Shown here: positions 3,442-37,578 of the stretch, piece after piece
How the letters are laid out: each line of letters begins with the position of its first letter
How positions within the stretch are numbered: position 1 is the stretch's first letter
DNA from: Thermoanaerobaculia bacterium
GTDB lineage: Bacteria > Acidobacteriota > Thermoanaerobaculia > UBA5066 > Gp7-AA6
Reading direction: 5' to 3'
NCBI GenBank assembly: GCA_038319475.1
Contig: JBBQDF010000001.1
Location: 1-37,934 of the forward strand
DNA length: 37,934 bases
Position numbers and translations under genes: made by a program
Notes under the pieces: model-generated
What the model was told of the DNA's origin: nothing
Database searches by the model: none
The model's input: only the letters and a program-made list of their open reading frames with translations

Positions 3442-3801
3442 CTAACGTCCACGGCTCTTCGCGACGGTCTCGGCCGCATCGACTCGCACCTTCATGGCAG
3501 CAAACTCGGATTCCAGGCGGACGAGCCGTTGATCCTGCTCCCGGTTGTCGGCCTTGTAGGTGATCGGATCGACGACGGATTCCCGCGTCGCGAAGCGGCT
3601 CATCACGCGGAGCTCGAAGTCCAACATCTTCTTGTCGAGCATTGCGTTGTTGATAACGGACGACGCTCCGAGCGTGGCGGTGACGATCAGCGCGAGCTTC
3701 GTCAGCGTCAGCATCCCCAGGTCGGTGCCGCGCTTTGTCGGCTCTTCTGGCATCCCACTCCTTTTATGGTGGAGGAACTCTTGTGTGTTTTCCGGGCTCA
3801 T
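3442..3801 (-). CDS. membrane-anchored coiled-coil protein (i-spanin/Rz-like topology)
   Basis: TM segment [21 protein letters not shown] followed by a charged helical region ([22 protein letters not shown]). ATG 3801 overlaps the upstream TGA (ATGA). It sits in the lysis neighbourhood. Confidence 0.5.
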
Positions 3802-4004: not shown

Positions 4005-4303
4005 AGGTGTTCCCTCGCTTTCTTCAGGGCGCGCCGGATTGCGGCCTTCTCTTCGCGCGGGAGCTTCCCGATATGGTGCACCTTCCCGGCCGTCTTCAAC
4101 TCGCGCTCCGCGGCGTGGAGATCCGCTTGGAACGCCGCGCACTCCTGGGGGCCCTTGACCTCGACGCAGCCCGCCTCGTAGCGGCCCTCGTGGTACGTGT
4201 ACGCGGCCGCCTGACTCGCGAGGAAATCCTTGTCCGCGATGCAGCCCGTCATGGCGACGAGGAGCAGGAAGAGCCACACGAGCCCGCGTTTGATCCGCCT
4301 CAT
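4001..4303 (-). CDS. lipoprotein (o-spanin-like candidate)
   Basis: MRRIKRGLVWLFLLLVAMTG|C is a signal peptide with a lipobox. ATG 4303 is preceded by GGGGGAG and overlaps the upstream TGA (ATGA). The 455-aa track ORF is an upstream shadow extension. Confidence 0.6.
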   Translation of the reverse strand: MRRIKRGLVWLFLLLVAMTGCIADKDFLASQAAAYTYHEGRYEAGCVEVKGPQECAAFQADLHAAERELKTAGKVHHIGKLPREEKAAIRRALKKAREHL

Positions 4304-4602
4304 CGCTCCCCCGTCTGCTTCTCGATCTCGCGCTGGATGGCGGGTACCACGCTCGACGGCTCCCGGATTGCCAGATTCGTCAGGTCGGGGTTCGCGATCC
4401 GCTTCTCCGCCTCGGACGCTACGAGGATCTTGCTGCTCGCGTGAATGCTCCGATCGAGCCCCCACGCCACGAGCGCCGCGCCGATGTACGCCAGCCCGTC
4501 CGCGATGTTGTGTTCGACGAGCTTCCCGACTCCGAGCAGGAAGAGGCCGGCCGCTCCGATGCGGCCGACCCCCTGCTGGAGTAGAAGCGCGAGTCCAGGC
4601 AG
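4300..4602 (-). CDS. two-TM small membrane protein (holin-like candidate), apparent CTG start
   Basis: Hand translation: LPGLALLLQQGVGRIGAAGLFLLGVGKLVEHNIADGLAYIGAALVAWGLDRS...EKQTGER. G/C predominates at third codon positions from the first codon. There is no ATG/GTG/TTG before the second TM. CTG 4602-4600 directly follows AGGGGGATAG. The first canonical start (GTG) would give a 56-aa product lacking both TMs. Confidence 0.5.
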   Translation of the reverse strand: MPGLALLLQQGVGRIGAAGLFLLGVGKLVEHNIADGLAYIGAALVAWGLDRSIHASSKILVASEAEKRIANPDLTNLAIREPSSVVPAIQREIEKQTGER

Positions 4603-4612
4603 CTATCCCCCT
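4600..4612 (-). promoter_or_regulatory. translation-initiation motif AGGGGGATAG-CTG (copy 1)
   Basis: This 13-nt string is identical to 32066-32078. It reads as an SD-like AGGGGGA, then TAG, then CTG. Confidence 0.5.
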
Positions 4613-13111: not shown

Positions 13112-14773
13112 TCACCCCGTAAAAATCGGCACTTCGACTGCGGTCTTCGCCGTGTTCCCGATCGACCGAGGCTTGGCGGCGAGGTCCGCGCGCCCGCCGA
13201 GCAGGCTGTTCATGAAGGAGGTCTCCCCGCCGTAGAGGTTCGAGAGGCCTGCCGCGCCCGCGTTGCGGTCCTGCCGCGCGAAGTCCTCGAAGCCCATCCG
13301 GCTGCTGCGCACCGCGTTGGAGCCCGCCGCGGCTTCGTGCGCGCCGACATTGGCGAGCGCGGCGTCCGTCCCGCCTGTGCCGCCCGTCGCCGCCGCGTGC
13401 CGCTTGATCTGCTCCCCCGCGCCTTGGAACCCTGCACGCGCCGAGTTCACCGAGTCCTGGATGATCGCGCTCTTCGTCGGATCGGAGAGGCCGGGATTCG
13501 TCTTCATGTTCATGTAGGTGTCGTACGCGTTGCCGCCCGCGAGCTGCCGGTTGCCGGACGCGCCACCCTGTCCCCACATCTGCCCGCCCTCGGAAATCGC
13601 GCGGCCCTGCGCGTCGTAGCCGAGCGTGGGCCCCTGGAACGCGCCGGAGAAGAACGGGCTCGCTTCCGGGATCGGGTCGCCCGGCTGGCCGCCCGGAGGG
13701 GTCGTGTCGCGCGGAGGCAGCGCGATCGGCGGCGGCACGTTGCCGGTCGGCGGGATCACTGGAGCCCGCGGCGGTACGGCCGGTGGTGCCGTCGTCGTCG
13801 AGCTCGGCGACTTGCCCGGCGACTGGCCCGGCGGCTGGCTCACGTTGCCGGTCGGCGGGATCACTGGAGCCCGCGGCGGCGTGGCCACCGTCGAAGTCTG
13901 CGCGGCCTTCGCCGCGAGTGCTGCGCGCCCCCGTTCCGCTTGTGCCGCGAGCGCCGCGTCGGTGTCCATGAATTGCCCGAACTGTGAGGCGTCGTACGGT
14001 TTTCCGGTGATCCCGTAGCCGCTTTTCATCCCCATCGCGGCCTGCGGGTTGTAGGTCATCGACTTGTCGTTTTCGATGCCCTTGAGCCATTCGTTCGTCG
14101 CGGTGTTGTTCGGATCGTCAGGGCCGGATTCGTTGGGGAACGGATCGGTTCCGACGCTCAAGTGCTCCGCGCCCTTGTAAATGCGACCGTTCGGCCCGAC
14201 CGGGTAGTTCTTGTATCCGGCCGGATCGACGCCGAGCTCACGCATCTTGTCGCGCGCCTCCTGACTGATGCCCGAGAGATCCATCCCGTTGACCATGCCG
14301 CCGTCGCTCATGTCGTACGCGCCAGCGCCGGGGCCGCCGTTGTAGGCGTCTGCTGGCGCATAGGATCGGTCGAGAGCATATCTGCCGCCGGTGCCGCCGG
14401 AACCTCCTCGATCGCCACCACCGCTACCACCGCCGGAGGAACTCCCGAAAGAAGGACCTTCGTTCGCGCCGCGGACGATCGGCCCGTTGTTGCGGCGCGT
14501 ATGATCGCCGTCCGAGCCGTCCTGATCGTCGGCCGGCGGCGGCGTTCCACGCGGCGGATGCAACGTCGGGTCCGCCTCAGCGTCCGGTCGCGTGTACGGC
14601 CCGGCCATCGCCCGGTTGCCGTACATCTCGCTCGCAAACGCGTTGGCGGTCGGACCCATGTCCGTCCCGTAGTCGTAATTCAGGTTTCCCGACGTGCTCT
14701 GATCGCGCGTCTTCGAGCCGATGTCGAAGCTACACGCGACCGCGAGGGCCTGCGTTCTGAGGTTCAACCACAT
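13112..14773 (-). CDS. Gly/Pro-rich low-complexity virion-internal-like protein (553 aa)
   Basis: ATG 14773 (TGATG junction with the GNAT stop). The track start at 14776 is a TTG one codon upstream. Contains PPRAPVIPPTGNV twice. Confidence 0.65.
   Translation of the reverse strand: MWLNLRTQALAVACSFDIGSKTRDQSTSGNLNYDYGTDMGPTANAFASEMYGNRAMAGPYTRPDAEADPTLHPPRGTPPPADDQDGSDGDHTRRNNGPIVRGANEGPSFGSSSGGGSGGGDRGGSGGTGGRYALDRSYAPADAYNGGPGAGAYDMSDGGMVNGMDLSGISQEARDKMRELGVDPAGYKNYPVGPNGRIYKGAEHLSVGTDPFPNESGPDDPNNTATNEWLKGIENDKSMTYNPQAAMGMKSGYGITGKPYDASQFGQFMDTDAALAAQAERGRAALAAKAAQTSTVATPPRAPVIPPTGNVSQPPGQSPGKSPSSTTTAPPAVPPRAPVIPPTGNVPPPIALPPRDTTPPGGQPGDPIPEASPFFSGAFQGPTLGYDAQGRAISEGGQMWGQGGASGNRQLAGGNAYDTYMNMKTNPGLSDPTKSAIIQDSVNSARAGFQGAGEQIKRHAAATGGTGGTDAALANVGAHEAAAGSNAVRSSRMGFEDFARQDRNAGAAGLSNLYGGETSFMNSLLGGRADLAAKPRSIGNTAKTAVEVPIFTG
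13736..13879. repeat. exact 39-bp direct repeat inside the gene (13736-13774 and 13841-13879)
   Basis: CACGTTGCCGGTCGGCGGGATCACTGGAGCCCGCGGCGG occurs twice with 105-bp phasing. Confidence 0.85.
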
Positions 14774-15183
14774 CAAAGCTCCTTCTGGAATCGGTGGACG
14801 AGATCGAACGTCAGATGCATCCGCGGATCGCTCTTGAACCCGTAGCGGGAGAGCACGAGGCCCTTGTTCATCGTTTCGAGGTTCGGCTCCAGAGGCACGA
14901 TCAGGCTGTCGCAGCCCTCTTCGTAGACGGCCCGCGCGAACGTCGGCCAGACGCTCTTCAGCACGTGCAGCCGGCGAAGATCCGTCCCCGCGGAGGGGTC
15001 GAGCATCAGCACCACTTCCGCCGTCTTCCGGGCGAGGATGCAGGCGATCACGTGGCCCTTCTCTTCGACGACGAAGGCGGTCTTGTGAAGGCGATAGGAC
15101 GGATCAGTGAAGCGGACGCCAGCGCGCGCGGCTACCTGTTCGAGGGCCTCGCGATCGCGCTCGTCATACTTGCGGATGTTCAG
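14773..15183 (-). CDS. GNAT-family N-acetyltransferase-like protein (136 aa), apparent CTG start
   Basis: LNIRKYDERDREALEQVAARAG...VVEEKGHVIACIL...MNKGLVLSRYGFK follows the GNAT layout. The track ORF (GTG 15051, 92 aa) would remove the N-terminal third. The 44 upstream codons are open, with G/C predominating at third positions, and contain no ATG/GTG/TTG. CTG 15183 overlaps the upstream TGA (CTGA) after GGTGATAG. Confidence 0.55.
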   Translation of the reverse strand: MNIRKYDERDREALEQVAARAGVRFTDPSYRLHKTAFVVEEKGHVIACILARKTAEVVLMLDPSAGTDLRRLHVLKSVWPTFARAVYEEGCDSLIVPLEPNLETMNKGLVLSRYGFKSDPRMHLTFDLVHRFQKEL

Positions 15184-15500
15184 CTATCACCGCGACAATT
15201 ATAAGCCGCCGACTCCCGCCCGATGAGCCCGGAGCGCGGCCCGCACCACGGGGTCGCTGCACCGCCGAGCGGTTCGGAGTATCCCCACCCGAGCACCGAG
15301 AACAGCCGCGCGCCCGGAGATCCCATCGCGTAGTGCTTCTCGCACAGCCACGCCTCGTTTGTCGCGGCGACGCCCGGCCGAGGACATTGCTCGCAGAGCT
15401 TCGCCGCCTGGGAACACTCGATGCAGAAGGCTCCGCCCTCCGGCCTCGGGACGAGCCCGCTGCGTTGACAGTCGGCCGTCTTACACGCGCGCGCCCGCAC
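15180..15500 (-). CDS. Cys-rich small protein
   Basis: ORF-track ORF with a GTG start overlapping the cupin gene end. CxxC-type pairs are present (CKTADC, CIEC, CEQC). Confidence 0.45.
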   Translation of the reverse strand: MRARACKTADCQRSGLVPRPEGGAFCIECSQAAKLCEQCPRPGVAATNEAWLCEKHYAMGSPGARLFSVLGWGYSEPLGGAATPWCGPRSGLIGRESAAYNCRGDS

Positions 15501-16498: not shown

Positions 16499-17970
16499 CA
16501 GACGTAAGGGGCGGTCGAGTCGCGCACGATCGAAGAACCGTTCGCACGCGCCCAAGCGGCAACAAGGGGGTCTGAGACGCCCGAATTGGCCAGGAGATTG
16601 TCGGACATATCCAAGTCGTCAACCCACGGCGCGGCCGCGTCGCCGGCGTTGAGCATCGGTCGCGTGAGCGCGAAGTCGCACGTCCCGGAAATCTGATTGT
16701 CCACTAAGAACTCAACAGTCGCGCTCGTAAGCGGGCCAGAAATCGCCGGAAGGCCGAACGTGAACACGAGCCGCCGCCACGTCGACGAAAGCAGGGAGCC
16801 GCTGAATTGACAGGTGAAGGCCGAGCCTCCCATCGTGACGGTCGGCGAGACGTAGGCGGAAGCGATCGACGCCCCGCCGGCCCCGGTAAGCCGCGCGTAG
16901 ATCGAAATGGTCATTTTCTGTAGCGGCGCGACGAGAAGCCCGGCAAGCCCCTGCGCGATGACGCTCTGACCTGTCGCGAGCCCGCCGAGGCAAAGAATCT
17001 CACCCGTCGGCTTCCCGCCGTTCGCCCTAAACTGAGGGAAAATTGTTCCGGTGTTGTTTCGACGCCACGGGGTCCACCGCGGACGCCCGGCGGAAACCGG
17101 AAGAGTGCCCGGAGTCGGCTGCCCGCCAACCCAATCCACGATTCCGAGGCCCGCATACGCGCCGGAACCGGCCGACGTGTTGAGCGTGAAAGTCGTTGCG
17201 CCCGTCACCGTAATCGTCCAGAGCCCATTCGCTGCAAGGTTGCCCGTCACCCCGGAGATATAGATGATGTCGTTGGTCGCGTATCCGTGGCCGCCCGCCG
17301 TCGTGATCGCGATAGGCGTCGCATTGGTTGCCGCGATGATGACGGTCAAGTCCTTGAGGTTGGCATTCGCGGCGATCGCTCCGTCTGCGAACGCCGCATT
17401 GAACAGTAGGTTCTTCTGAGTCCACTTGGGTTCCCCCGTCACGTCGCCGGCCCCGTTCGTCAAAATCTCGATTGGAGTGCCCGTTGCTTGGAACGGGATC
17501 GACACCGAGCCGCCTGAACGCGAAAGAATCCAGTACGTCCGGCGCAGCGGGTTCGCGGGGTCGAGGTTCGGAATCGTGAAGTCGCTGTCCGTCCAGTTGA
17601 AGCCCGAACCGGACGGAAGACACCCGCCGCTCGCTGGCACGGTGTCGCGTTTCGTGGCCGCGCCGCCGTTGAAGGACGGCGTTGTCGGCGAAAGGCGAGT
17701 CCCGGCATCCGCGCTCCAAACTTCGTAGCCGTCCACCGTCGCGCCGCTCTCGTCCGGGGTCCACGCGAGCACCACGGCCGCCCCCACCTGTCTCGCCGTG
17801 ACGGAGTGCGGCCCCTTCGGCGAAGTCGTAGACGCCGCCGCGGCCCTCCGGACGTTCAAGTCGGCGGTGTAGGTGTCCACGATCGTTCGGATCGCCTTGT
17901 AGAGATCCGGATCGCTGTCCTTGATCGCCTCGAGCTCCGGCACGGACGGCGCGGCCGGAAGGTTGCTCAT
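16498..17970 (-). CDS. tail fibre / receptor-binding-like protein with an FN3-like segment
   Basis: ATG 17970 forms an ATGA overlap. SVTARQVGAAVVLAWTPDESGATVDGYEVW is FN3-like. The GHGYATNDIIYISGVTGNLAANGLWTITVTGATTFTL module is shared with 29097..29729. Confidence 0.6.
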   Translation of the reverse strand: MSNLPAAPSVPELEAIKDSDPDLYKAIRTIVDTYTADLNVRRAAAASTTSPKGPHSVTARQVGAAVVLAWTPDESGATVDGYEVWSADAGTRLSPTTPSFNGGAATKRDTVPASGGCLPSGSGFNWTDSDFTIPNLDPANPLRRTYWILSRSGGSVSIPFQATGTPIEILTNGAGDVTGEPKWTQKNLLFNAAFADGAIAANANLKDLTVIIAATNATPIAITTAGGHGYATNDIIYISGVTGNLAANGLWTITVTGATTFTLNTSAGSGAYAGLGIVDWVGGQPTPGTLPVSAGRPRWTPWRRNNTGTIFPQFRANGGKPTGEILCLGGLATGQSVIAQGLAGLLVAPLQKMTISIYARLTGAGGASIASAYVSPTVTMGGSAFTCQFSGSLLSSTWRRLVFTFGLPAISGPLTSATVEFLVDNQISGTCDFALTRPMLNAGDAAAPWVDDLDMSDNLLANSGVSDPLVAAWARANGSSIVRDSTAPYV

Positions 17971-20856: not shown

Positions 20857-21519
20857 TTAACGGTGTGCCGAACTGAACGGAATGCGCCGTCCCGCCTTGT
20901 ATTGAGCCCTGTTCACGTGTCTCCGCAGGAACCGATTCGCCTGCTTCTCGTACTGGCCCGACAGCCGATCGCCGAGAGAATTCGAGCCGCGCGAATACGC
21001 GCAAGCCGCCGCCGTGAAAGTCGCCAGCACGTTCAACGCGCCGCCGATTAAGATCGGATCGGTCCCGGTCGTGAAGATCGCCAGCCTGGACTCGTACTCG
21101 AGCCGGATGTCCGTCGCGACCGTCGCCGCCTGAATGTTGATCCGGTTCTGATACCAGCCCCACGTCCCGCGCGTGCTCATGGGCGTTACGTCGGACAGCG
21201 GGACTTCTTCGGCCTCGTCCATTTCGACGAACTGGTCCGTCGTGCCCGTCGCCCGCTCCTCGAGCCCGTACGGCAGGATGAAGTCAGCCGGCAGCGCGGG
21301 CGTCGAGGAGCCGTCCAAGAAGAGAACGCTCGCGCCGACGTTGGACAGCACGACGCTCGAACGGTTCACCCCGGCCTGGTTTGTCGAGAGCCGCTCCTGA
21401 AGCTCCAGATACGCCTCGTTGGCAAGCGGCAGCATGGCCGTCGCGTCCCACACCGCGCCCTCGCGGTCCCCGACCTTCGCTTTCGCTAGCGCGACGAGAT
21501 CCGAATAGAGGTCGGCCAG
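20857..21519 (-). CDS. adaptor/tail-tubular-A-like structural protein (220 aa), apparent CTG start
   Basis: The track ORF starts at GTG 21453 (VWDAT...). The same frame is open upstream to TAG CGG CTG and encodes LADLYSDLVALAKAKVGDREGAVWDATAMLPLANEAYLEL, an N-terminal pattern I associate with phage adaptor/tail proteins. It contains no ATG/GTG/TTG. Confidence 0.5.
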   Translation of the reverse strand: MADLYSDLVALAKAKVGDREGAVWDATAMLPLANEAYLELQERLSTNQAGVNRSSVVLSNVGASVLFLDGSSTPALPADFILPYGLEERATGTTDQFVEMDEAEEVPLSDVTPMSTRGTWGWYQNRINIQAATVATDIRLEYESRLAIFTTGTDPILIGGALNVLATFTAAACAYSRGSNSLGDRLSGQYEKQANRFLRRHVNRAQYKAGRRIPFSSAHR

Positions 21520-21522
21520 CCG

Positions 21523-22251
21523 CTAGCCTTTGGCCTTTCCGGGCTGCGCGAGCGGCTGGATGAATCCGCGATCGAGCCCGCGCGTCTCCTCCGCGTCGTC
21601 CAACGCGCCCATGTCGTACGCCTTCTGCCAGTCGAGGACGTACCGACACTGCGCACACCGCACCGCGGCCGGATCGTTCTTCGCTTGACACGCTCCGCAG
21701 ACCTTCACCGTCGAGATCACCCCGGCCCACTCCTTCGTGATCCCGAAGTAGTCCGCGAACCATCGCGCGTGATCGCCCACGTCCCGAGGATTCTTCCCGC
21801 GAGCCCACCGCTTGTCCGCCTCGAGGATCTCGGTGCGGCCGTACTCCTCGAATCGCTCCCGACACGCCGCGAGATCCTCCGCGGCCGGCCCCTCGTCCGC
21901 ATCATCCCCTACGTAAAAGACGCCGCGGTCCTGCCCCATCGAGGAGAGTAGATCCATCGCCCGCTGCTTCGCCGACACGATCACCGGCTCCGCCTGCCCG
22001 TTGCCGAAATCCTTGAACGCGTTGTAGCCCTTGATCGGCACGAGGATAAACGGCTCATAGGTTCCGTCCTTGCGACGCGGACACGCCGGGATCTCCATGT
22101 TGCCGCCCTGGTCGTGCCGGCGGTACGGACTCCACGGCGAGATCGAGCAGAGATACGCCGTCTCGCCTTCGAGCCGCTCCGCCTGCTCGTCCGAAAGCGT
22201 CCCCACCATCCGGTTACGCGTGTCGATTCCACCCATCGGCTGAAAAGCCAT
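21523..22251 (-). CDS. hypothetical protein with a C-terminal zinc-ribbon (CGAC...CAQC)
   Basis: ORF-track ORF with a TAATG junction to the upstream gene. Confidence 0.55.
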   Translation of the reverse strand: MAFQPMGGIDTRNRMVGTLSDEQAERLEGETAYLCSISPWSPYRRHDQGGNMEIPACPRRKDGTYEPFILVPIKGYNAFKDFGNGQAEPVIVSAKQRAMDLLSSMGQDRGVFYVGDDADEGPAAEDLAACRERFEEYGRTEILEADKRWARGKNPRDVGDHARWFADYFGITKEWAGVISTVKVCGACQAKNDPAAVRCAQCRYVLDWQKAYDMGALDDAEETRGLDRGFIQPLAQPGKAKG

Positions 22252-22952: not shown

Positions 22953-22998
22953 CGCGTGACTTCGAAAAAGTTTAGACAGCCTTAAACTCCAAGCTTCC

Positions 22999-23265
22999 CT
23001 GAGAGTCCGAGCGAAAAGAGCGGGCGCAGCCGGCTCCCACACCGTCGCGGAGTGGAAAGCCGTACTGCGCCACTACAAACGTCGCTGCGTCTACTGCGCC
23101 GTGAAGTTGACCAACCGCACGGTCAGTCGAGACCACAAGGTGCCGCTCGCCAAAGGCGGGACCAACAGCATCCGGAACATCGTCCCGGCCTGTCGCTCCT
23201 GCAATTCCGCGAAGCACGTCATGTCTCACGACGAATTCCTAAAGTACAGAAAACACGGTCATTAA
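22999..23265 (+). CDS. HNH endonuclease (free-standing), apparent CTG start
   Basis: Hand translation: ...HTVAEWKAVLRHYKRRCVYCAVKLTNRTVSRDHKVPLAKGGTNSIRNIVPACRSCNSAKHVMSHDEFLKYRKHGH*. This carries CxxC...DH...N...CxxCN, the HNH signature. It is missing from the track because the only canonical start (GTG) lies after the first CxxC. CTG 22999 is the only common near-cognate start upstream. Confidence 0.65.
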   Translation: MRVRAKRAGAAGSHTVAEWKAVLRHYKRRCVYCAVKLTNRTVSRDHKVPLAKGGTNSIRNIVPACRSCNSAKHVMSHDEFLKYRKHGH

Positions 23266-27953: not shown

Positions 27954-29062
27954 CACGAGGTCGGCGCGACGAAGGTGTCGAAAAAGACGGAGATCCGGAC
28001 GACGCCGGTCGCCGCGCCGGGCGTCGCGTTGGGGGTGATCCGAATCTTGACCGCCGAGGTCTGCACGGGGCCAGCCGCCGACGTATTCGTCGGGTCCATG
28101 TGGAGCAGGCCGACCGCCGTGGTGTTCGCGGCAACCGCTACGCCCGTAGCAAACCGCGCGGGAGTTGTCGCATCGCCGACCGTGAACGTCGCGGCGGTCG
28201 GGATGGCGGTCGTGACGCGGACGACGACGGCACGAATGATGGAGTTGGCCGGGAGCAAGTTGCCGACCGTGTCGGTAGATGTCGCGGCGGCGATTGTCAA
28301 GAGCTCGTTGATCTCGCCGCGCTGCCAGTATTGGCCGTTGCCGGTGCCGCCCGGGCCGACGTAGATATTCTTGACCGAGTTGGCCGTGGAGCCGAGGTCC
28401 TTCGATCCGTTGGGAACCATAGACGAAGCACCCATAGAGAAGATGGACGCGCCTCCGATCTGGAACCGAATGTTGTTGTCGGAGCCGAGGTTGAGCCCGT
28501 TCTCCGTCCCGGTGCCGCCCTTCGTCGAGAGAATCTGAACTTGGTTTGACCCCTGCGCGAAGTTCACCGCGAGCTTGTGGTAGTTGACCGGAGTCGTGTC
28601 CGAGTCCGTCGTCTCGTAAATTTCGAACGCCTGGTTATTCGTCAAGGCGATCTCGCGAATCGTGTTCGCGCCCGAGGGGCGCAGGTTGGCGAGGTCGAAG
28701 GTGAGCGTTCCGGCGGCGAAGCGCGGGAGACCTGTGACTCCGGAAACGTCCTGACCGAACGCGCCCTGCGTCAGCGGGAAGGTGCCCGAAGTCACGTCGC
28801 CTGCCGCGTGGGTGTGGACGCCGATCTGGGCCGCCGCAATCGTCGTGATGCCCTGAATGGTCGTGGCGTTGGTCCACTGCGCGATCTGGTTGGCGACGGG
28901 GGTCCCGCTGATTGCCACCGCGCCGCCACCACCGCCGCCGGGGGTGTCGATGCGTTTCGCCGCAGAAGAGGCGATGATCGCGGCCGATTGCTGTTGAGCA
29001 AGGCCGCTCGAGGAAACAAGAAGGGCGGTCAGAGCCGCCAGGATCAGCGCGGTTTTTTTCAG
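27953..29062 (-). CDS. signal-peptide, tail-fibre-like protein (369 aa), apparent CTG start
   Basis: The track ORF starts at GTG 28918. Forty-eight open upstream codons encode LKKTALILAALTALLVSSSGLAQQ..., a Sec signal peptide, with no ATG/GTG/TTG. CTG 29062 overlaps the TGA of a mini-ORF (ATGAGCTGA). The HTHAAGDVTSGTFPL motif resembles phage fibre proteins. Confidence 0.6.
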   Translation of the reverse strand: MKKTALILAALTALLVSSSGLAQQQSAAIIASSAAKRIDTPGGGGGGAVAISGTPVANQIAQWTNATTIQGITTIAAAQIGVHTHAAGDVTSGTFPLTQGAFGQDVSGVTGLPRFAAGTLTFDLANLRPSGANTIREIALTNNQAFEIYETTDSDTTPVNYHKLAVNFAQGSNQVQILSTKGGTGTENGLNLGSDNNIRFQIGGASIFSMGASSMVPNGSKDLGSTANSVKNIYVGPGGTGNGQYWQRGEINELLTIAAATSTDTVGNLLPANSIIRAVVVRVTTAIPTAATFTVGDATTPARFATGVAVAANTTAVGLLHMDPTNTSAAGPVQTSAVKIRITPNATPGAATGVVRISVFFDTFVAPTS

Positions 29063-29096
29063 CTCATATACCCGCCTTTCTCAGGGTCGCCCCCGA

Positions 29097-29740: not shown

Positions 29741-32068
29741 CTACTGCACCGGAGGTGCGGTTTGATCGTCGCCCGGAGCGCCACCGGGCGTCTCGGGCGG
29801 AACGGCCGTAGCCTGCTGAGCCTGCAAGATCGTCGCGCACTCATCCAGTCGCATCCGCAGCGCCATCCACACGTCGGGCCGCGTCTGCCGCGTCTCCTGC
29901 CCCGCGTCCGACGCCGCCCACTCGCGGATCGTCGCCGCGATCACCTGCGCGTCGTCCATCATCGGATCGACTGGAGGCATCCCGGCCGGCCCTTCCTGAA
30001 TCGCGCGCGAGATCACCCGAAGCTCCGACTCCCGCTCCGACGCGCCGGGAATCTCGATCTCGTCGGCCATCCCGGAGTACTTGAAAAACGTCTCCGCGTT
30101 GGACGGCCGCGCGAAAAGCGCAGCGAATGCGGGGTTGGCCGACGCGGCCTCGACCGCCTGCCGCCGCTTCTCGAACGTCACCGGATACGCCTCCGTCACG
30201 TCCGGGTAGGCGCGAATGTTGCCCTTCAATTCGTCCAAGCGGATGAGCTTGGAATCGAGAGTCCCGGCCGGGCCCATCACGGCGATCTTCACGTCCGCGG
30301 GCCGGTTCTCCTTGAAGCACTCGACCGCCATCCCGTCGATGTCCGCGAGGAATCCAACCATCGTGCGCCACAGCAGCCCGATCCGGCCGAGCCCCTGATC
30401 CCGCTGATCCGCGATCCCCGCGGCCGTGTCGTTGCCGCCCGTGTCGCCGCCGAAGATCGCCGGAAACGCCCCGACGAGAAACTGCCCGATCTCCGACCGC
30501 AGCTCTCGCAAATATTCCGGAATGAACTGGGAGAGCGTCGCCGGCTGCGTCTGGAAGAAGTCGCCCGGCAGGCTCCCACCCTCCGACGGCATCGCCCCGA
30601 ACACGAGCCCAGGGATCGACCCTGCCTCGCGGAATGCGGCGATGTCCAGCGTGTCCGAATTGACGAACAGCGCCGGGATCCCGTACTCCGCCGTCTCGTA
30701 GAGGATATTCGAGAGCGCGTTGTACTGCTTCTGCACCGGGATCAGCGACGAGCCGACGGCCTCGCGGTTCTGGCCCTCGCCAGGGAAGGCGTGAACCACC
30801 TTCCACCGCTTGTCCATTTCGTCCTCTTCCGCCTCGCAGTACGTGTCGCCGCAGAACGTGACCTTGACGCCCTTCGGGAATCGCCGCAGCAGTTCCGCAC
30901 GGATCGTCTCGTCCTTCACCGCATAGAACGCCCACGGCCGGAACCACGTGCGCCGCAGCGGCAGAAGCACCTGCCCGAGCTTCCCGCCCGCTCGAGCCGG
31001 GCCCGTGCCGGATTCCAAAAGCGCGATGTTCGTGCTCTTCTCGTACGCCTGCGCCGAGGCCGCCTCGCCCCCGCCGCTGCCCGAGTCGCCCGACTTGTCA
31101 ATCCGCTTCTCGATCCACGGATAGGTCGCGATAACCCGCGCCTTGTGGAAGTAGCCCGAGTAGGTCAGAAACGGGTACTGATCCTGCTCCTGCGCGTAGG
31201 TCGGCAGCACGAGGTTCAGAAACGAGACGAGCTCCAACATTTCCTGTCCACGTGGCGTGCGGTCGATCATCTGCTGCCCGGTCGTGGGATCCATCGCGGG
31301 AGCCGTGAACGTGACCGGCTCGCCCTCGCGCATCGTGGATGGGTCCAGCGGCGTCCCACACTCCGGGCACGTCGGCTGCGTCTGGCCCGGATCGGGCGCA
31401 GGCACGGGACCGCTCACCCCACAGTCGGTGCACGTCGCGACCGGATCGCCGGGCTTCGTCTGGAGCTCCGTCCGGGGCGTCTCGTCCACCCCGTACTTCT
31501 GCTCGTCCGCGACGTAGCGCACAAAGCCCGCGCAGCCGCCGTCGTTGAACAGATAAAACATGATGTCCTGAAGGAGCTTGGGAATCGGGTTGTTGCGCCG
31601 GAAGAGTTGCGCCACGTCCGTCGCCGCCTTCGAGGTCGCCACGTCCGAATGGTTCTCAGGATCCGCCGGCATCCACTTCGTGCGCGGATTGCCCTCCGTC
31701 AAAACCGAGATCAGCGTGAGCCCGAACGCCTGATAGAGGTTCGTCACGTGCTGATACCGCGGCATCATGTCGAGTTCTTTGTCGGTGAGCTTGTCCTGGC
31801 CGGGGATCTTGAACTGCCCTGTACGCTCGTCGAAAAAGTAGTAGTGGAGCCCCTTCCACATTTCGCGGGCCTCGCGGATCTTCCTCAGATCGTCGCGGCG
31901 CGCGACGGAGACCTCAGCCTCGAAGTCGTAGACGAGTTTCCGCAGCGCCGTAACGCCTTCGGCCCACTCCTTCTCGAGATCGGGATTTTTCCCCGGCGAT
32001 GGCGTCCCCGGCGAGGTGCCCGCAAGATCGACGGGCTCGGGAGGTTGAGGCTGATAGGCGCTGGACAG
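29741..32068 (-). CDS. portal protein (putative), apparent CTG start adding 69 N-terminal residues
   Basis: The large ORF lies downstream of the terminase, and size and position fit a portal. The track start is ATG 31861, but the frame stays open for 69 more codons (LSSAYQPQPPEPV...EKEWAEGVTALRKLVYDFEAEVSVARRDDLRKIREARE), with G/C predominating at third positions, up to AGGGGGATAG-CTG at 32068. Confidence 0.6.
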   Translation of the reverse strand: MSSAYQPQPPEPVDLAGTSPGTPSPGKNPDLEKEWAEGVTALRKLVYDFEAEVSVARRDDLRKIREAREMWKGLHYYFFDERTGQFKIPGQDKLTDKELDMMPRYQHVTNLYQAFGLTLISVLTEGNPRTKWMPADPENHSDVATSKAATDVAQLFRRNNPIPKLLQDIMFYLFNDGGCAGFVRYVADEQKYGVDETPRTELQTKPGDPVATCTDCGVSGPVPAPDPGQTQPTCPECGTPLDPSTMREGEPVTFTAPAMDPTTGQQMIDRTPRGQEMLELVSFLNLVLPTYAQEQDQYPFLTYSGYFHKARVIATYPWIEKRIDKSGDSGSGGGEAASAQAYEKSTNIALLESGTGPARAGGKLGQVLLPLRRTWFRPWAFYAVKDETIRAELLRRFPKGVKVTFCGDTYCEAEEDEMDKRWKVVHAFPGEGQNREAVGSSLIPVQKQYNALSNILYETAEYGIPALFVNSDTLDIAAFREAGSIPGLVFGAMPSEGGSLPGDFFQTQPATLSQFIPEYLRELRSEIGQFLVGAFPAIFGGDTGGNDTAAGIADQRDQGLGRIGLLWRTMVGFLADIDGMAVECFKENRPADVKIAVMGPAGTLDSKLIRLDELKGNIRAYPDVTEAYPVTFEKRRQAVEAASANPAFAALFARPSNAETFFKYSGMADEIEIPGASERESELRVISRAIQEGPAGMPPVDPMMDDAQVIAATIREWAASDAGQETRQTRPDVWMALRMRLDECATILQAQQATAVPPETPGGAPGDDQTAPPVQ

Positions 32069-32078
32069 CTATCCCCCT
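32066..32078 (-). promoter_or_regulatory. translation-initiation motif AGGGGGATAG-CTG (copy 2)
   Basis: Identical 13-mer to 4600-4612. Here the TAG is the stop of the 32069..32473 gene. Confidence 0.5.
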
Positions 32079-35895: not shown

Positions 35896-35967
35896 TGGTG
35901 GCGGGGGCGGGATTTGAACCCGCTCCTCCGGGCAGATGAAGCCTGGATCGCTCCGAAGCGCCCCGCG
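35896..35967 (-). tRNA. initiator-tRNA-like element (anticodon CAU), non-canonical D arm
   Basis: Minus-strand RNA: CGCGGGG-CGCUUCGGAGCG-AU-CCAGGC-UUCAUCU-GCCCGG-AGGA-GCGGG-UUCAAAU-CCCGC-CCCCGCC-A-CCA. It has a perfect T arm, a 6-bp acceptor stem with an unpaired 1:72, and an encoded CCA. The D arm is replaced by a 4-bp/tetraloop hairpin, the anticodon stem has an A-C mismatch, and position 37 is C. Confidence 0.45.
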
Positions 35968-36238
35968 TCTGACGATCGCCGTCGGGCCCGCGAGGTGTCC
36001 AAGCTCCCGCCCGGCCACGAGAGCGTCCGCAGCCCATCGCAGCCGGGTGAGTGGTCAGCCCGCGAAAGGGGCCGACGGAGGGGTGTCTCATCCGGTCCGA
36101 CCAGTCTGAGGCGAGGAGTTTCCGCCGTCAAGACCTTTTAGGGGCGAACGAATTGCGCGCTAGGCTACAACGGGATCGACGGTTGCGGCCAGTGCTCCGA
36201 TGAGGCTCGGGCTTCGTGTGGAAACGAAGTACCCAAAA

Positions 36239-36278
36239 GCGGATCAGAATCGAACCGACGGCCGCCGCTCACATCCGC
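36239..36278 (-). other. T-arm-like hairpin followed by a T4 run (degenerate tRNA fragment or weak terminator after the MTase gene)
   Basis: Minus strand: GCGGAU-...GUCGG-UUCGAUU-CUGAU/AUCCGC-UUUU. It has a GGUUCGAUU T-loop consensus and a 6-bp outer stem. Confidence 0.25.
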
Positions 36279-36330
36279 CTCGATAGGAGCTAGGCACGGT
36301 TCGCCCGCCGCGGCTCCGACCTGATCCGTC

Positions 36331-37578
36331 CTACCGCACCGCGGTTACGTCGAACTCGAACAGGTGCTTGTTGGAGTTCCGTTTGCGAAGTGTCTCGATT
36401 CGAACGTTACGGAACCCTAACTTCTCAAGCATCTCAGCGTAAATGTTCTCGACGGGGACGACCACGCCGTAGAATGTGACGTTCCCGACGATGTAGTGAA
36501 CCACGCCTCCTGGCCTGATGACTCCCTTCACAGATTGAATGTGCGTCCAGATATCCTCGAAGTATTTGGCCACGTAAGTCGCCAAGAGGTCTCGGTTCTC
36601 GCCGTTCGTCTCTCGGATCGCTGCAAGGGAAGAACCGAGGATTCGGGGAACGAAGCTCTTGCCACTTGGTCGCCAGCCGATCAGTCGGCTTGTTGCGACG
36701 CCCCAAGTACCGCCGATGGCCGTCCAGTCGAGTTCAGCGGCTGCGCGGGCCTCATTGAGGAAGCCCAGCCAGTACATGTAGGGCCGAAGCTCTCGGATGT
36801 AGGACATCCGGTTTGGGTAAGGAGGTGAGGTAATGAGCAGGTCATATTTTCGAGAGACTAGGCCCTCAAGCTCACGAGAGTCTCCTTCGATGACCTCAGC
36901 GGCTCCGACTGGATTCGTTGCAGCACCAGCGAGGACGGTGGCAACGTCTTTTGAGAACTGATTTGGGATGTCGTGGTCGACGCCGAACATTGGTTGCTGT
37001 GCTGACCTTCCATCTTTGAACGACATCGACTGATGATTGAACGCGGCGTTCGAACTTGTGATGATGGTTCGGCAGAACGCAATCCGCAGCAGATCGCCTA
37101 CGGGCGTTCTGAGTCGAGTTGTTGCTTCGAGCGACGTCCTCAGTCGGCAAAGCTGAGTCAGAGTGTCCGAGGGCCACCAACGCTGGATGTTGGCCAAGGG
37201 TGGTGGGGCGCCCGGCTCTTCTTTCTCGTCACTGCAGCGCTGAACGATCTCCCGAGCGAGCGCCGCAGCGCCAGAGAGGACCTCATCGCAATACTGAGCT
37301 AGCTTTGCACGACCGAACCAGACGAGGAACGGATTGATCTCGATAGATGTCGCGGCACGGCCGAGATTGGCGGCGCACAAAGTTGTCGTCCCAGTTCCTG
37401 AGAAAGGATCCAAGACGACAAGCCCCGAAGCGCCGGAGTTCAGGATCTCCTGAACGATTTTTACTGAATACGCCGGGGTAAGCCGCAGCCAGCCGTGTCG
37501 CCCCGCGGATCGGTTGTACTTGAAGGTCAACTCTGCCCGCTGCCCGACCCGTTCCCGTTCGTCCTGAGTGAGGCTCAC
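36331..37578 (-). CDS. DNA methyltransferase (N4-cytosine or N6-adenine; SPPY motif IV, FxGxG motif I N-terminal)
   Basis: VLDPFSGTGTT (AdoMet motif I), then ~190 aa, then LLITSPPYPN (catalytic motif IV). No cognate nuclease gene is nearby. The gene is visibly less GC-rich than the rest of the window. The GTG start overlaps the TAG of a leader mini-ORF. Confidence 0.8.
   Translation of the reverse strand: MSLTQDERERVGQRAELTFKYNRSAGRHGWLRLTPAYSVKIVQEILNSGASGLVVLDPFSGTGTTTLCAANLGRAATSIEINPFLVWFGRAKLAQYCDEVLSGAAALAREIVQRCSDEKEEPGAPPPLANIQRWWPSDTLTQLCRLRTSLEATTRLRTPVGDLLRIAFCRTIITSSNAAFNHQSMSFKDGRSAQQPMFGVDHDIPNQFSKDVATVLAGAATNPVGAAEVIEGDSRELEGLVSRKYDLLITSPPYPNRMSYIRELRPYMYWLGFLNEARAAAELDWTAIGGTWGVATSRLIGWRPSGKSFVPRILGSSLAAIRETNGENRDLLATYVAKYFEDIWTHIQSVKGVIRPGGVVHYIVGNVTFYGVVVPVENIYAEMLEKLGFRNVRIETLRKRNSNKHLFEFDVTAVR

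Follow-up and report, generated by a model that had tools for sequence, protein, structure and literature searches.

A probable CTG start codon in a CTGA stop/start overlap of an Acidobacteriota phage, one of at least five candidates in the same contig

CTG is a listed bacterial start codon that accounts for about 0.02% of annotated genes in model genomes, and gene finders ignore it. To our knowledge, verified bacterial CTG starts can be counted on one hand, two of them in E. coli K-12. In E. coli, mutagenesis of the start codon confirmed that hda and yfjD begin at CTG (EcoGene 3.0, PMC3531124). The RepFIB rep gene (P307, F, pO157) uses a CTG start with a good ribosome-binding site, a pairing interpreted as a deliberate means of keeping expression low (PMC11983097). 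Stop/start overlaps, for their part, commonly couple the translation of adjacent genes by termination-reinitiation, often with the aid of a Shine-Dalgarno (SD) sequence (Huber et al. 2019, PMC6728339; review PMC12548453). Here we describe a junction in a 37,934-nucleotide contig assigned to a Thermoanaerobaculia bacterium (JBBQDF010000001.1; the whole stretch is called the window), where a gene for a GNAT-fold protein appears to begin at a CTG that overlaps the stop codon of a Cys-rich gene. The window is a phage sequence and makes up the entire longest contig of a 3.3-Mb, 76%-complete metagenome-assembled genome (MAG).

We put at roughly 0.8 the probability that the GNAT-fold gene truly initiates at CTG 15183..15181. 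This is because the frame is closed just upstream, no canonical start follows for 44 codons, the N-terminus is conserved and the start codons of orthologs align with the CTG. The locus resembles hda and yfjD in that a conserved N-terminus and a ribosome-binding site point to CTG where annotation had chosen a downstream canonical codon. However, those are two verified cases among about 4,300 E. coli K-12 genes, whereas the phage has at least five putative ones among about 50 genes. Like RepFIB rep, which is routinely mis-annotated at a downstream GTG, this is a mobile-element gene with CTG and a good ribosome-binding site. Unlike it, a single regulatory gene without a stop/start overlap, the phage genes are structural and accessory, and each CTG adjoins a stop. 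With described ATGA and TGATG coupling the locus shares a 4-nt overlap and an SD inside the upstream gene, and orthologs of the GNAT-fold gene use ATGA or GTGA. The described cases have canonical starts, however, with CTGA and CUG unmentioned (PMC6728339, PMC12548453), and coupling in the phage is read from the arrangement of its genes. CTG starts and coupling at NTGA overlaps are thus already known; what is new is their density in one phage, their partial conservation and the combination of CTGA with a mini-open reading frame (mini-ORF).

The genes around the locus all lie on the minus strand. The elements of the junction, in window coordinates, are as follows.

15181..15183, minus strand: CTG, proposed initiation codon of the GNAT-fold gene; the first codon after the in-frame TGA-TAG, with which ortholog starts align
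15180..15182, minus strand: TGA stop of the Cys-rich gene, with two bases in common with the CTG, giving CTGA at 15183..15180
15184..15189, minus strand: in-frame TGA TAG closing the GNAT frame, directly 5' of the CTG
15186..15191, minus strand: Shine-Dalgarno-like GGTGAT, 2 nt upstream of the CTG
15049..15051, minus strand: GTG, first canonical start (ATG/GTG/TTG) of the GNAT frame, 132 nt or 44 codons downstream of the CTG
15052..15183, minus strand: N-terminal 44 codons omitted by gene callers, judged by dN/dS, codon score and structural model
14773..15183, minus strand: GNAT-fold gene, 136 codons from the CTG, with stop TGA at 14775..14773
15180..15500, minus strand: conserved Cys-rich gene, 106 residues, from a GTG start at 15500 to TGA 15182..15180, adjoining the CTG
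14771..14775, minus strand: TGATG junction, with one base shared between the GNAT stop and the ATG of the following gene (about 554 residues)

The junction reads ...TATAATTGTCGCGGTGATAGCTGAACATCCGCAAGTATGAC... on the minus strand, and GGTGATAGCTGAAC contains the TGA stop of the Cys-rich gene. That ORF ends ...GGT GAT AGC TGA. One base back, in the other frame, the sequence TGA TAG CTG AAC ATC CGC AAG TAT gives two stops followed by LNIRKY. The in-frame TGA TAG before the CTG excludes any upstream start as well as a simple read-through fusion with the Cys-rich protein. A first-pass annotation of the window had described the CTGA overlap behind an in-frame TAG and a canonical GTG 132 nt downstream. 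All of these details are correct, and GTG 15051 is indeed the first ATG, GTG or TTG of the frame. The string CTGA is in itself unremarkable at 66% G+C. It is meaningful because of homology, since orthologs have their start codon at exactly the position of the CTG, and not because the string is rare.

A fusion of the GNAT-fold domain to the Cys-rich protein through frameshifting or read-through has next to no probability. The two ORFs do overlap, and their order and spacing are conserved. However, TGA TAG stands directly before the CTG, so a frameshift would need to occur at the stop codon, and no slippery sequence is present. Elsewhere, family members of about 135 residues stand alone and have a Met of their own. 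In addition, a head-module gene of the same phage with a candidate CTG start (below) differs between two phages in its frame relation to the upstream ORF. Recoding of TAG or TGA was also considered and rejected.

The position of the N-terminus was compared across homologs. A HMMER scan of 1.8 billion representative proteins gave 23 matches, the window's own 92-residue call and 22 relatives of 91-449 residues. In the 17 relatives that were aligned, most of them 130-163 residues long, residue 1-3 of the CTG-started protein pairs with residue 1-3 of the match. Their N-termini (MNIRPY, MIVRRY, MKIRAW, MVIRPY, MNIRPYEPRDREAL and others) follow the pattern M-x-[IV]-R, and the window protein begins (L)NIRKYDERDREAL. 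Only two alignment columns are invariant, R4 and D10, and both lie inside the 44 residues that are lost with a start at GTG 15051. The first-pass view that the protein properly begins at the CTG is borne out, in that homologs begin there with ATG or GTG. A word-indexed protein search with the 136-residue protein matched only the window's own shortened gene call. Searches of GenBank phages by blastn and tblastn gave nothing useful, and neither the GNAT-like protein nor its closest homolog had a match in scans of viral and metagenome contigs.

The closest relative, P0002, is 61% identical and is encoded on a 47-kb syntenic phage contig (L005-L007). Its Cys-rich ortholog, also of 106 residues and about 62% identical, sits in the same place, has its start codon at the aligned position and ends ...GGT AAT GGA TGA. 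These features indirectly suggest that the Cys-rich ORF is a translated gene. The GNAT-like gene of the relative then opens ATG ATC GTT CGT (...GGTAATGGATGATCGTT), with GAGGTAAT at the SD position. In the DNA alignment the relative's ATGA corresponds to the window's CTGA column for column. A 34%-identical member (L003/L004) has a GTGA overlap and opens GTG AAC ATC AGG. Another distant locus has GTGGTAA at the junction, and a prophage copy (L030) opens GTG AAG ATT CGG. The stop/start overlap therefore appears, from these comparisons, to be an old feature of the GNAT-fold gene in which the start codon varies in its first base only. At the other end of the gene, the junction with the next gene is ATGA in the relative.

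A homolog on an IMG/VR contig (L009) has ATT at the family start column and a GTG two codons downstream (ATT CTA GTG CGA GAC TAT). It has either a shorter N-terminus or a further non-canonical start.

Gene callers place the start elsewhere. The database protein P0001 is a 92-residue product that begins at GTG 15051, and an AAGGG lies 4 nt upstream of that codon. If this call were right, the 44 upstream codons would be untranslated, which we regard as highly improbable. The corresponding codon of the relative is GCG (Ala), so GTG 15051 is best read as an internal Val codon. Selection on the extension was estimated from the ratio of nonsynonymous to synonymous substitution rates (dN/dS) against the relative, which is 0.26 over codons 2-44 and 0.42 over the remainder of the gene. 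A codon model trained on the MAG gives the extension +0.31 per codon in its reading frame, versus -0.63 and -1.05 in the two alternative sense frames. The GNAT-fold gene, at +0.36 per codon under the host-trained score, is the highest in its neighbourhood. Several measures thus agree that the 44-codon extension, which carries both invariant residues, is probably translated and under purifying selection.

Structure prediction gives a similar picture. A single-sequence AlphaFold model was unusable (predicted local distance difference test, pLDDT, 51) and was discarded. An AlphaFold2 model built from a 10-sequence alignment has a pLDDT of 86, and 94 over the first 20 residues. Its elements follow in the order β1 (2-5), α1 (8-21), β2, β3, β4, α3 (68-88), β5, α4, β6 and β7. 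Residues 1-44 form β1-α1-β2 in this model, at pLDDT 81-94, and the 92-residue product would lack all three. This agrees with the first-pass claim that a GTG start would remove the first elements of the fold. The first 44 residues are likely to belong to the domain because homologs start there, R4 and D10 are invariant, dN/dS is 0.26 and β1-α1-β2 is predicted at pLDDT of about 94.

The identification of the protein as a GNAT enzyme stands in part. In Foldseek searches the top 50 matches in the PDB were all GNAT enzymes, and the top viral matches were also GNAT proteins, phage-encoded ones included. Probabilities reached 1.0 and the best E values were 9e-4 and 6e-5, but at low TM-scores of 0.3-0.45. 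A PDB-sequence profile search gave weak matches to TTHA1254, RimI and YpeA; its top two matches, designed repeat proteins, were rejected as compositional artefacts. The predicted order of strands and helices is likewise that of the GNAT superfamily. In contrast to that superfamily, the window protein has no Pfam or NCBIfam match and no recognisable pyrophosphate-binding motif. Scans of Pfam, PHROGs and NCBIfam with the GNAT-like, Cys-rich and other CTG-start proteins gave no match, and one of the 18 family members matched Acetyltransf_6 at E = 0.019. The β4-α3 loop reads LDPSAGTDLRRL, with the family consensus DPxxGTPxxRW, in which the canonical acetyl-coenzyme A (CoA) motif A (Q/R-x-x-G-x-G/A) is not recognisable. 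CoA could still be bound through backbone amides despite this loop. The assignment is therefore good at the level of the predicted fold only, and the defensible name is GNAT-fold protein of unknown activity.

The first-pass annotation had treated the CTG start of this gene as a single curiosity. Instead, a comparison of all ortholog pairs between window and relative, together with inspection of the sequence, finds at least five CTG starts among about 50 phage genes. The other four are as follows.

4600..4612, minus strand: second CTG start, AGGGGGATAG-CTG, of a 100-codon membrane-protein ORF (4602..4300)
32066..32078, minus strand: third CTG start, AGGGGGATAG-CTG, of a 775-codon head-module gene (32068..29741)
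21517..21525, minus strand: fourth CTG start, TAG CGG CTG, of a 220-codon gene (21519..20857) at the junction of two same-frame ORFs
29059..29067, minus strand: fifth CTG start, a mini-ORF ATG AGC TGA overlapping CTG 29062..29060 (CTGA), read from the sequence itself, with no homolog

The string GATAGCTG, met in a screen of the MAG for ORFs with coding signal ahead of the first canonical start, occurs three times in the window (0.34 expected). All three copies are on the coding strand, each at the opening of an ORF. A longer 13-mer, AGGGGGATAGCTG, occurs twice, at 4600-4612 and at 32066-32078 on the minus strand; both times its CTG opens an ORF that shares a conserved N-terminus with the relative, and the corresponding string at 15181-15191 is GGTGATAGCTG.

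At 4602 the CTG pairs with an ATG of the relative (LPGLALLLQQGVGR versus MPGLAILFQKGVGR). The first canonical start of this gene is codon 44, the dN/dS of the extension is 0.28 and the SD energy is -9.3. At 32068 the codon is CTG in the relative too, where it overlaps the upstream TGA (GGCTGAGT), and LSSAY is conserved. The first canonical start of the 775-codon gene lies 69 codons downstream (61 in the relative), with a dN/dS of 0.26 and an SD energy of -10.3. A metagenome scan with the 775-residue protein gave no match, and among 105 genomes of the MAG's family only the window itself was found. In distant Acidobacteriota prophages the N-terminus of this gene is too diverged to inform on its start. 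At 21519 the sequence TAG CGG CTG GCC GAC is identical in both phages (L007 12799-12807), and the first canonical start is codon 22. In about 57 distant Acidobacteriota prophage orthologs a homologous N-terminal helix follows an ATG of their own that lies 7 codons upstream of this position. The CTG at 29062 opens CTG AAA AAA ACC... and encodes a Sec signal peptide of the textbook type, LKKTALILAALTALLVSSSGLA followed by QQ. The first canonical start, GTG 28918, lies past this signal peptide. The mini-ORF has its own SD-like AAAGGCGGG, the preceding gene ends 34 nt away, and the arrangement looks designed to bring terminating ribosomes to the CTG. CTG is thus conserved as CTG in the relative at two of the four other sites (32068 and 21519).

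This conservation bears on the quality of the sequence. The window is a metagenome-assembled contig, and the true codon could be an ATG or GTG if base 15183 reflects a minority variant or a mistake in sequencing or assembly. We find this barely credible, as CTG recurs at four other start positions and at two of these it is also present in the independently assembled relative.

A sixth CTG candidate is ambiguous. A CTG at 22977-22979 (minus strand) behind GGAG aligns with the relative's called TTG start of the gene after the major capsid gene. Its status is ambiguous because the two phages share an identical 20-nt block that contains an ATG 9 codons downstream. Nearby, at 22990-23260, about 200 nt that separate the major capsid gene from its neighbour correspond to an alignment gap in the relative.

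All five CTGs have an SD. Calculated against an assumed anti-SD, which may differ from the host's 16S rRNA end, the SD duplexes range from -9.0 to -10.3 kcal/mol, with GGTGAT at 15183 at -9.0. The background median is -5.3 and its 10th percentile -9.3, and other phage starts are at about -9. The major capsid gene (GAGGATAG-ATG) and the start at 1151 (GGTGATAG-ATG) share this geometry of GGxGA, 3 nt and a start codon.

The frequency of such sites was then compared with that in the remaining MAG. A uniform filter called for a closed frame, an SD of -8 or lower, CTG in the first three codons and 12 or more coding-like codons ahead of a canonical start. SD-plus-CTG ORFs passing it make up 4 of the 27 high-scoring ORFs on the phage contig versus 4 of 2588 in the remaining MAG (Fisher p = 6e-7), where CTG is no commoner than other codons. 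A stricter filter left only six other candidate ORFs in the MAG, none with a CTG start and one resembling infC with an ATC start. These filters replaced a first codon-score screen of the MAG, whose 251 candidates were mostly shadow ORFs.

Two host ORFs are also of note. On contig C339 (plus strand, ~991), a 186-codon ORF opens GGAGGTGA AAG ATC GAT AAG AAA AGC ATC CGA and has no canonical start for 29 codons. It resembles infC with an ATC start, the classic autoregulated non-AUG start. The other, a high-scoring ORF of 463 codons on contig C205 (minus strand, index 2405), opens GAGGAGACGGTAG CTG TCC GCC, with the first canonical start 37 codons downstream; this is a possible CTG start outside the phage contig.

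The first-pass annotation had also listed ATGA, GTGA and TTGA overlaps elsewhere in the window and suggested from the pattern a termination-reinitiation coupling that accepts any NTG codon, a mechanism that may apply but that the pattern merely fits. The strings are present at 140, 3801, 4303, 17970, 32473, 4004 and 33663. Those at 17970, 32473, 4303, 4004 and 33663 are plausible junctions by their SD sequences and orthologs, but the one at 3801 is probably unused. ATG 3753 (3751-3753) has AAAGGAG upstream and an SD of -9.9 kcal/mol, versus -2.0 for the ATGA at 3798-3801, and it aligns with the relative's start.

How the CTG might be used can be outlined in the same terms. The codon would be read by the initiator tRNA as Met, so that the protein would begin with formylmethionine. 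Most likely, ribosomes that end the Cys-rich gene at UGA feed initiation at the CTG, at least partly, and the CTGA geometry would then be the same 4-nt coupling as the ATGA or GTGA of orthologs. A weak start codon, a good ribosome-binding site and coupling would together probably give a low, fixed output relative to the upstream gene. The distances from CTG to stop are -4 (the two CTGA overlaps), 0, 3 and 8 nt, all five within 9 nt, and a coupling pattern fits all five sites. The best hint that terminating ribosomes may feed a CTG is the mini-ORF ATG-AGC-TGA. Whether CTG initiation depends on upstream termination we would put at about even odds.

Several points weigh against CTG initiation at 15183 or against its coupling. 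The case for CTG initiation rests on comparative sequence and predicted structure. The anti-SD sequence behind the SD energies is an assumed one. No occluding mRNA structure is predicted around the five CTG sites (z -0.7 to +1.8; z = -0.6 at the GNAT site). Coupling and plain SD-driven initiation look the same here: the proximity of all five CTGs to a stop is not significant because about three-quarters of all phage starts are equally close, and ordinary SD-driven initiation could suffice because every CTG has an SD adequate for independent initiation. In E. coli reporters, moreover, CUG initiates at about 0.1-3% of AUG (bioRxiv 10.1101/063800).

The weakness of CUG, some 100-fold below AUG in E. 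coli (10.1101/063800), also suits a different history, in which an ATG-to-CTG substitution shut off all or nearly all expression of an accessory gene whose decay has yet to set in, and CTG is not a selected start. The closest relative has ATG at the aligned codon and CTG is derived here, so a recent weakening or loss of the start would look identical. The GNAT-fold gene, with no known function or family, could be such a gene. However, its ORF is intact across 136 codons and the SD is retained. GATAG-CTG heads two other genes and CTG five in all, among them the 775-residue head-module gene and a conserved structural gene that shares CTG with the relative. It is implausible that starts were lost independently five times, twice in conserved structural genes. 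Loss is conceivable for the GNAT-fold gene alone, and on balance we think it unlikely.

A second near-cognate codon, the ATC at codon 3 (15177..15175), would also keep the invariant Arg and could be the start instead of CTG. Such codons work at 0.1-3% of AUG (10.1101/063800). The family tolerates an N-terminus two residues shorter, as P0015 begins M-R and two members begin M-[IV]-R, and the infC-like host ORF appears to use ATC. Against this, it is CTG and not ATC that aligns with the ATG or GTG of orthologs, and the SD is 2 nt from the CTG but 8 nt from the ATC. The other four CTG genes have no nearby ATH codon, which leaves CTG as the common element. Initiation at ATC is therefore very unlikely, and CTG 15183..15181 is the preferred start.

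A more far-reaching proposal is that termination-coupled CUG is a regular expression device of the phage lineage. A mini-ORF would be built where no gene ends nearby, and a CUG-licensing factor of the phage's own, such as an initiator-tRNA-like element, would make CUG an efficient, phage-specific start. We hold this to be doubtful.

The window does contain a tRNA-like element. ARAGORN calls a tRNA-Met(CAT) at 35896-35969 on the minus strand, with an initiator-like acceptor stem and T arm (CGCGGGG...GGTTCAAATCCCGCCCCCGCCACCA, 1:72 unpaired). The D arm of this call is reduced to a tiny hairpin, and a pyrimidine occupies position 37. Rfam finds no tRNA in the window at the gathering threshold. 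The rest of the MAG contains no exact match to the element, and 38 kb of the relative lack a counterpart. The element may be what is left of an att site, or an odd phage tRNA, and any link to CTG initiation is purely speculative. A second ARAGORN call, an 83-nt tRNA-Arg(CCT) at 36235-36317 (minus strand), adjoins a DNA methyltransferase gene at 36331-37578 and is without support from Rfam.

Besides this methyltransferase, the window carries a terminase and a major capsid gene, and the relative carries an integrase. Genome contigs contain 210 relatives of the major capsid protein, with about 50% identity among 80 of them (L012-L091), and the capsid gene always starts with ATG. Nearly all of these relatives are in Acidobacteriota MAGs (Terriglobia, Ca. 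Acidiferrales), many inside megabase contigs, which points to a widespread temperate phage group of soil Acidobacteriota.

For this lineage, CTG starts of the kind proposed here would mean that database proteins are shortened by 22-69 residues. One protein would thereby lose its signal peptide, a holin-like protein both of its transmembrane helices, and the GNAT fold its first strands. Such shortened N-termini would mislead family building and structure prediction for uncultured Acidobacteriota phages. The phage may also serve as a natural test bed for two questions, whether post-termination reinitiation relaxes start-codon selection and whether weak start codons fix the stoichiometry of phage proteins.

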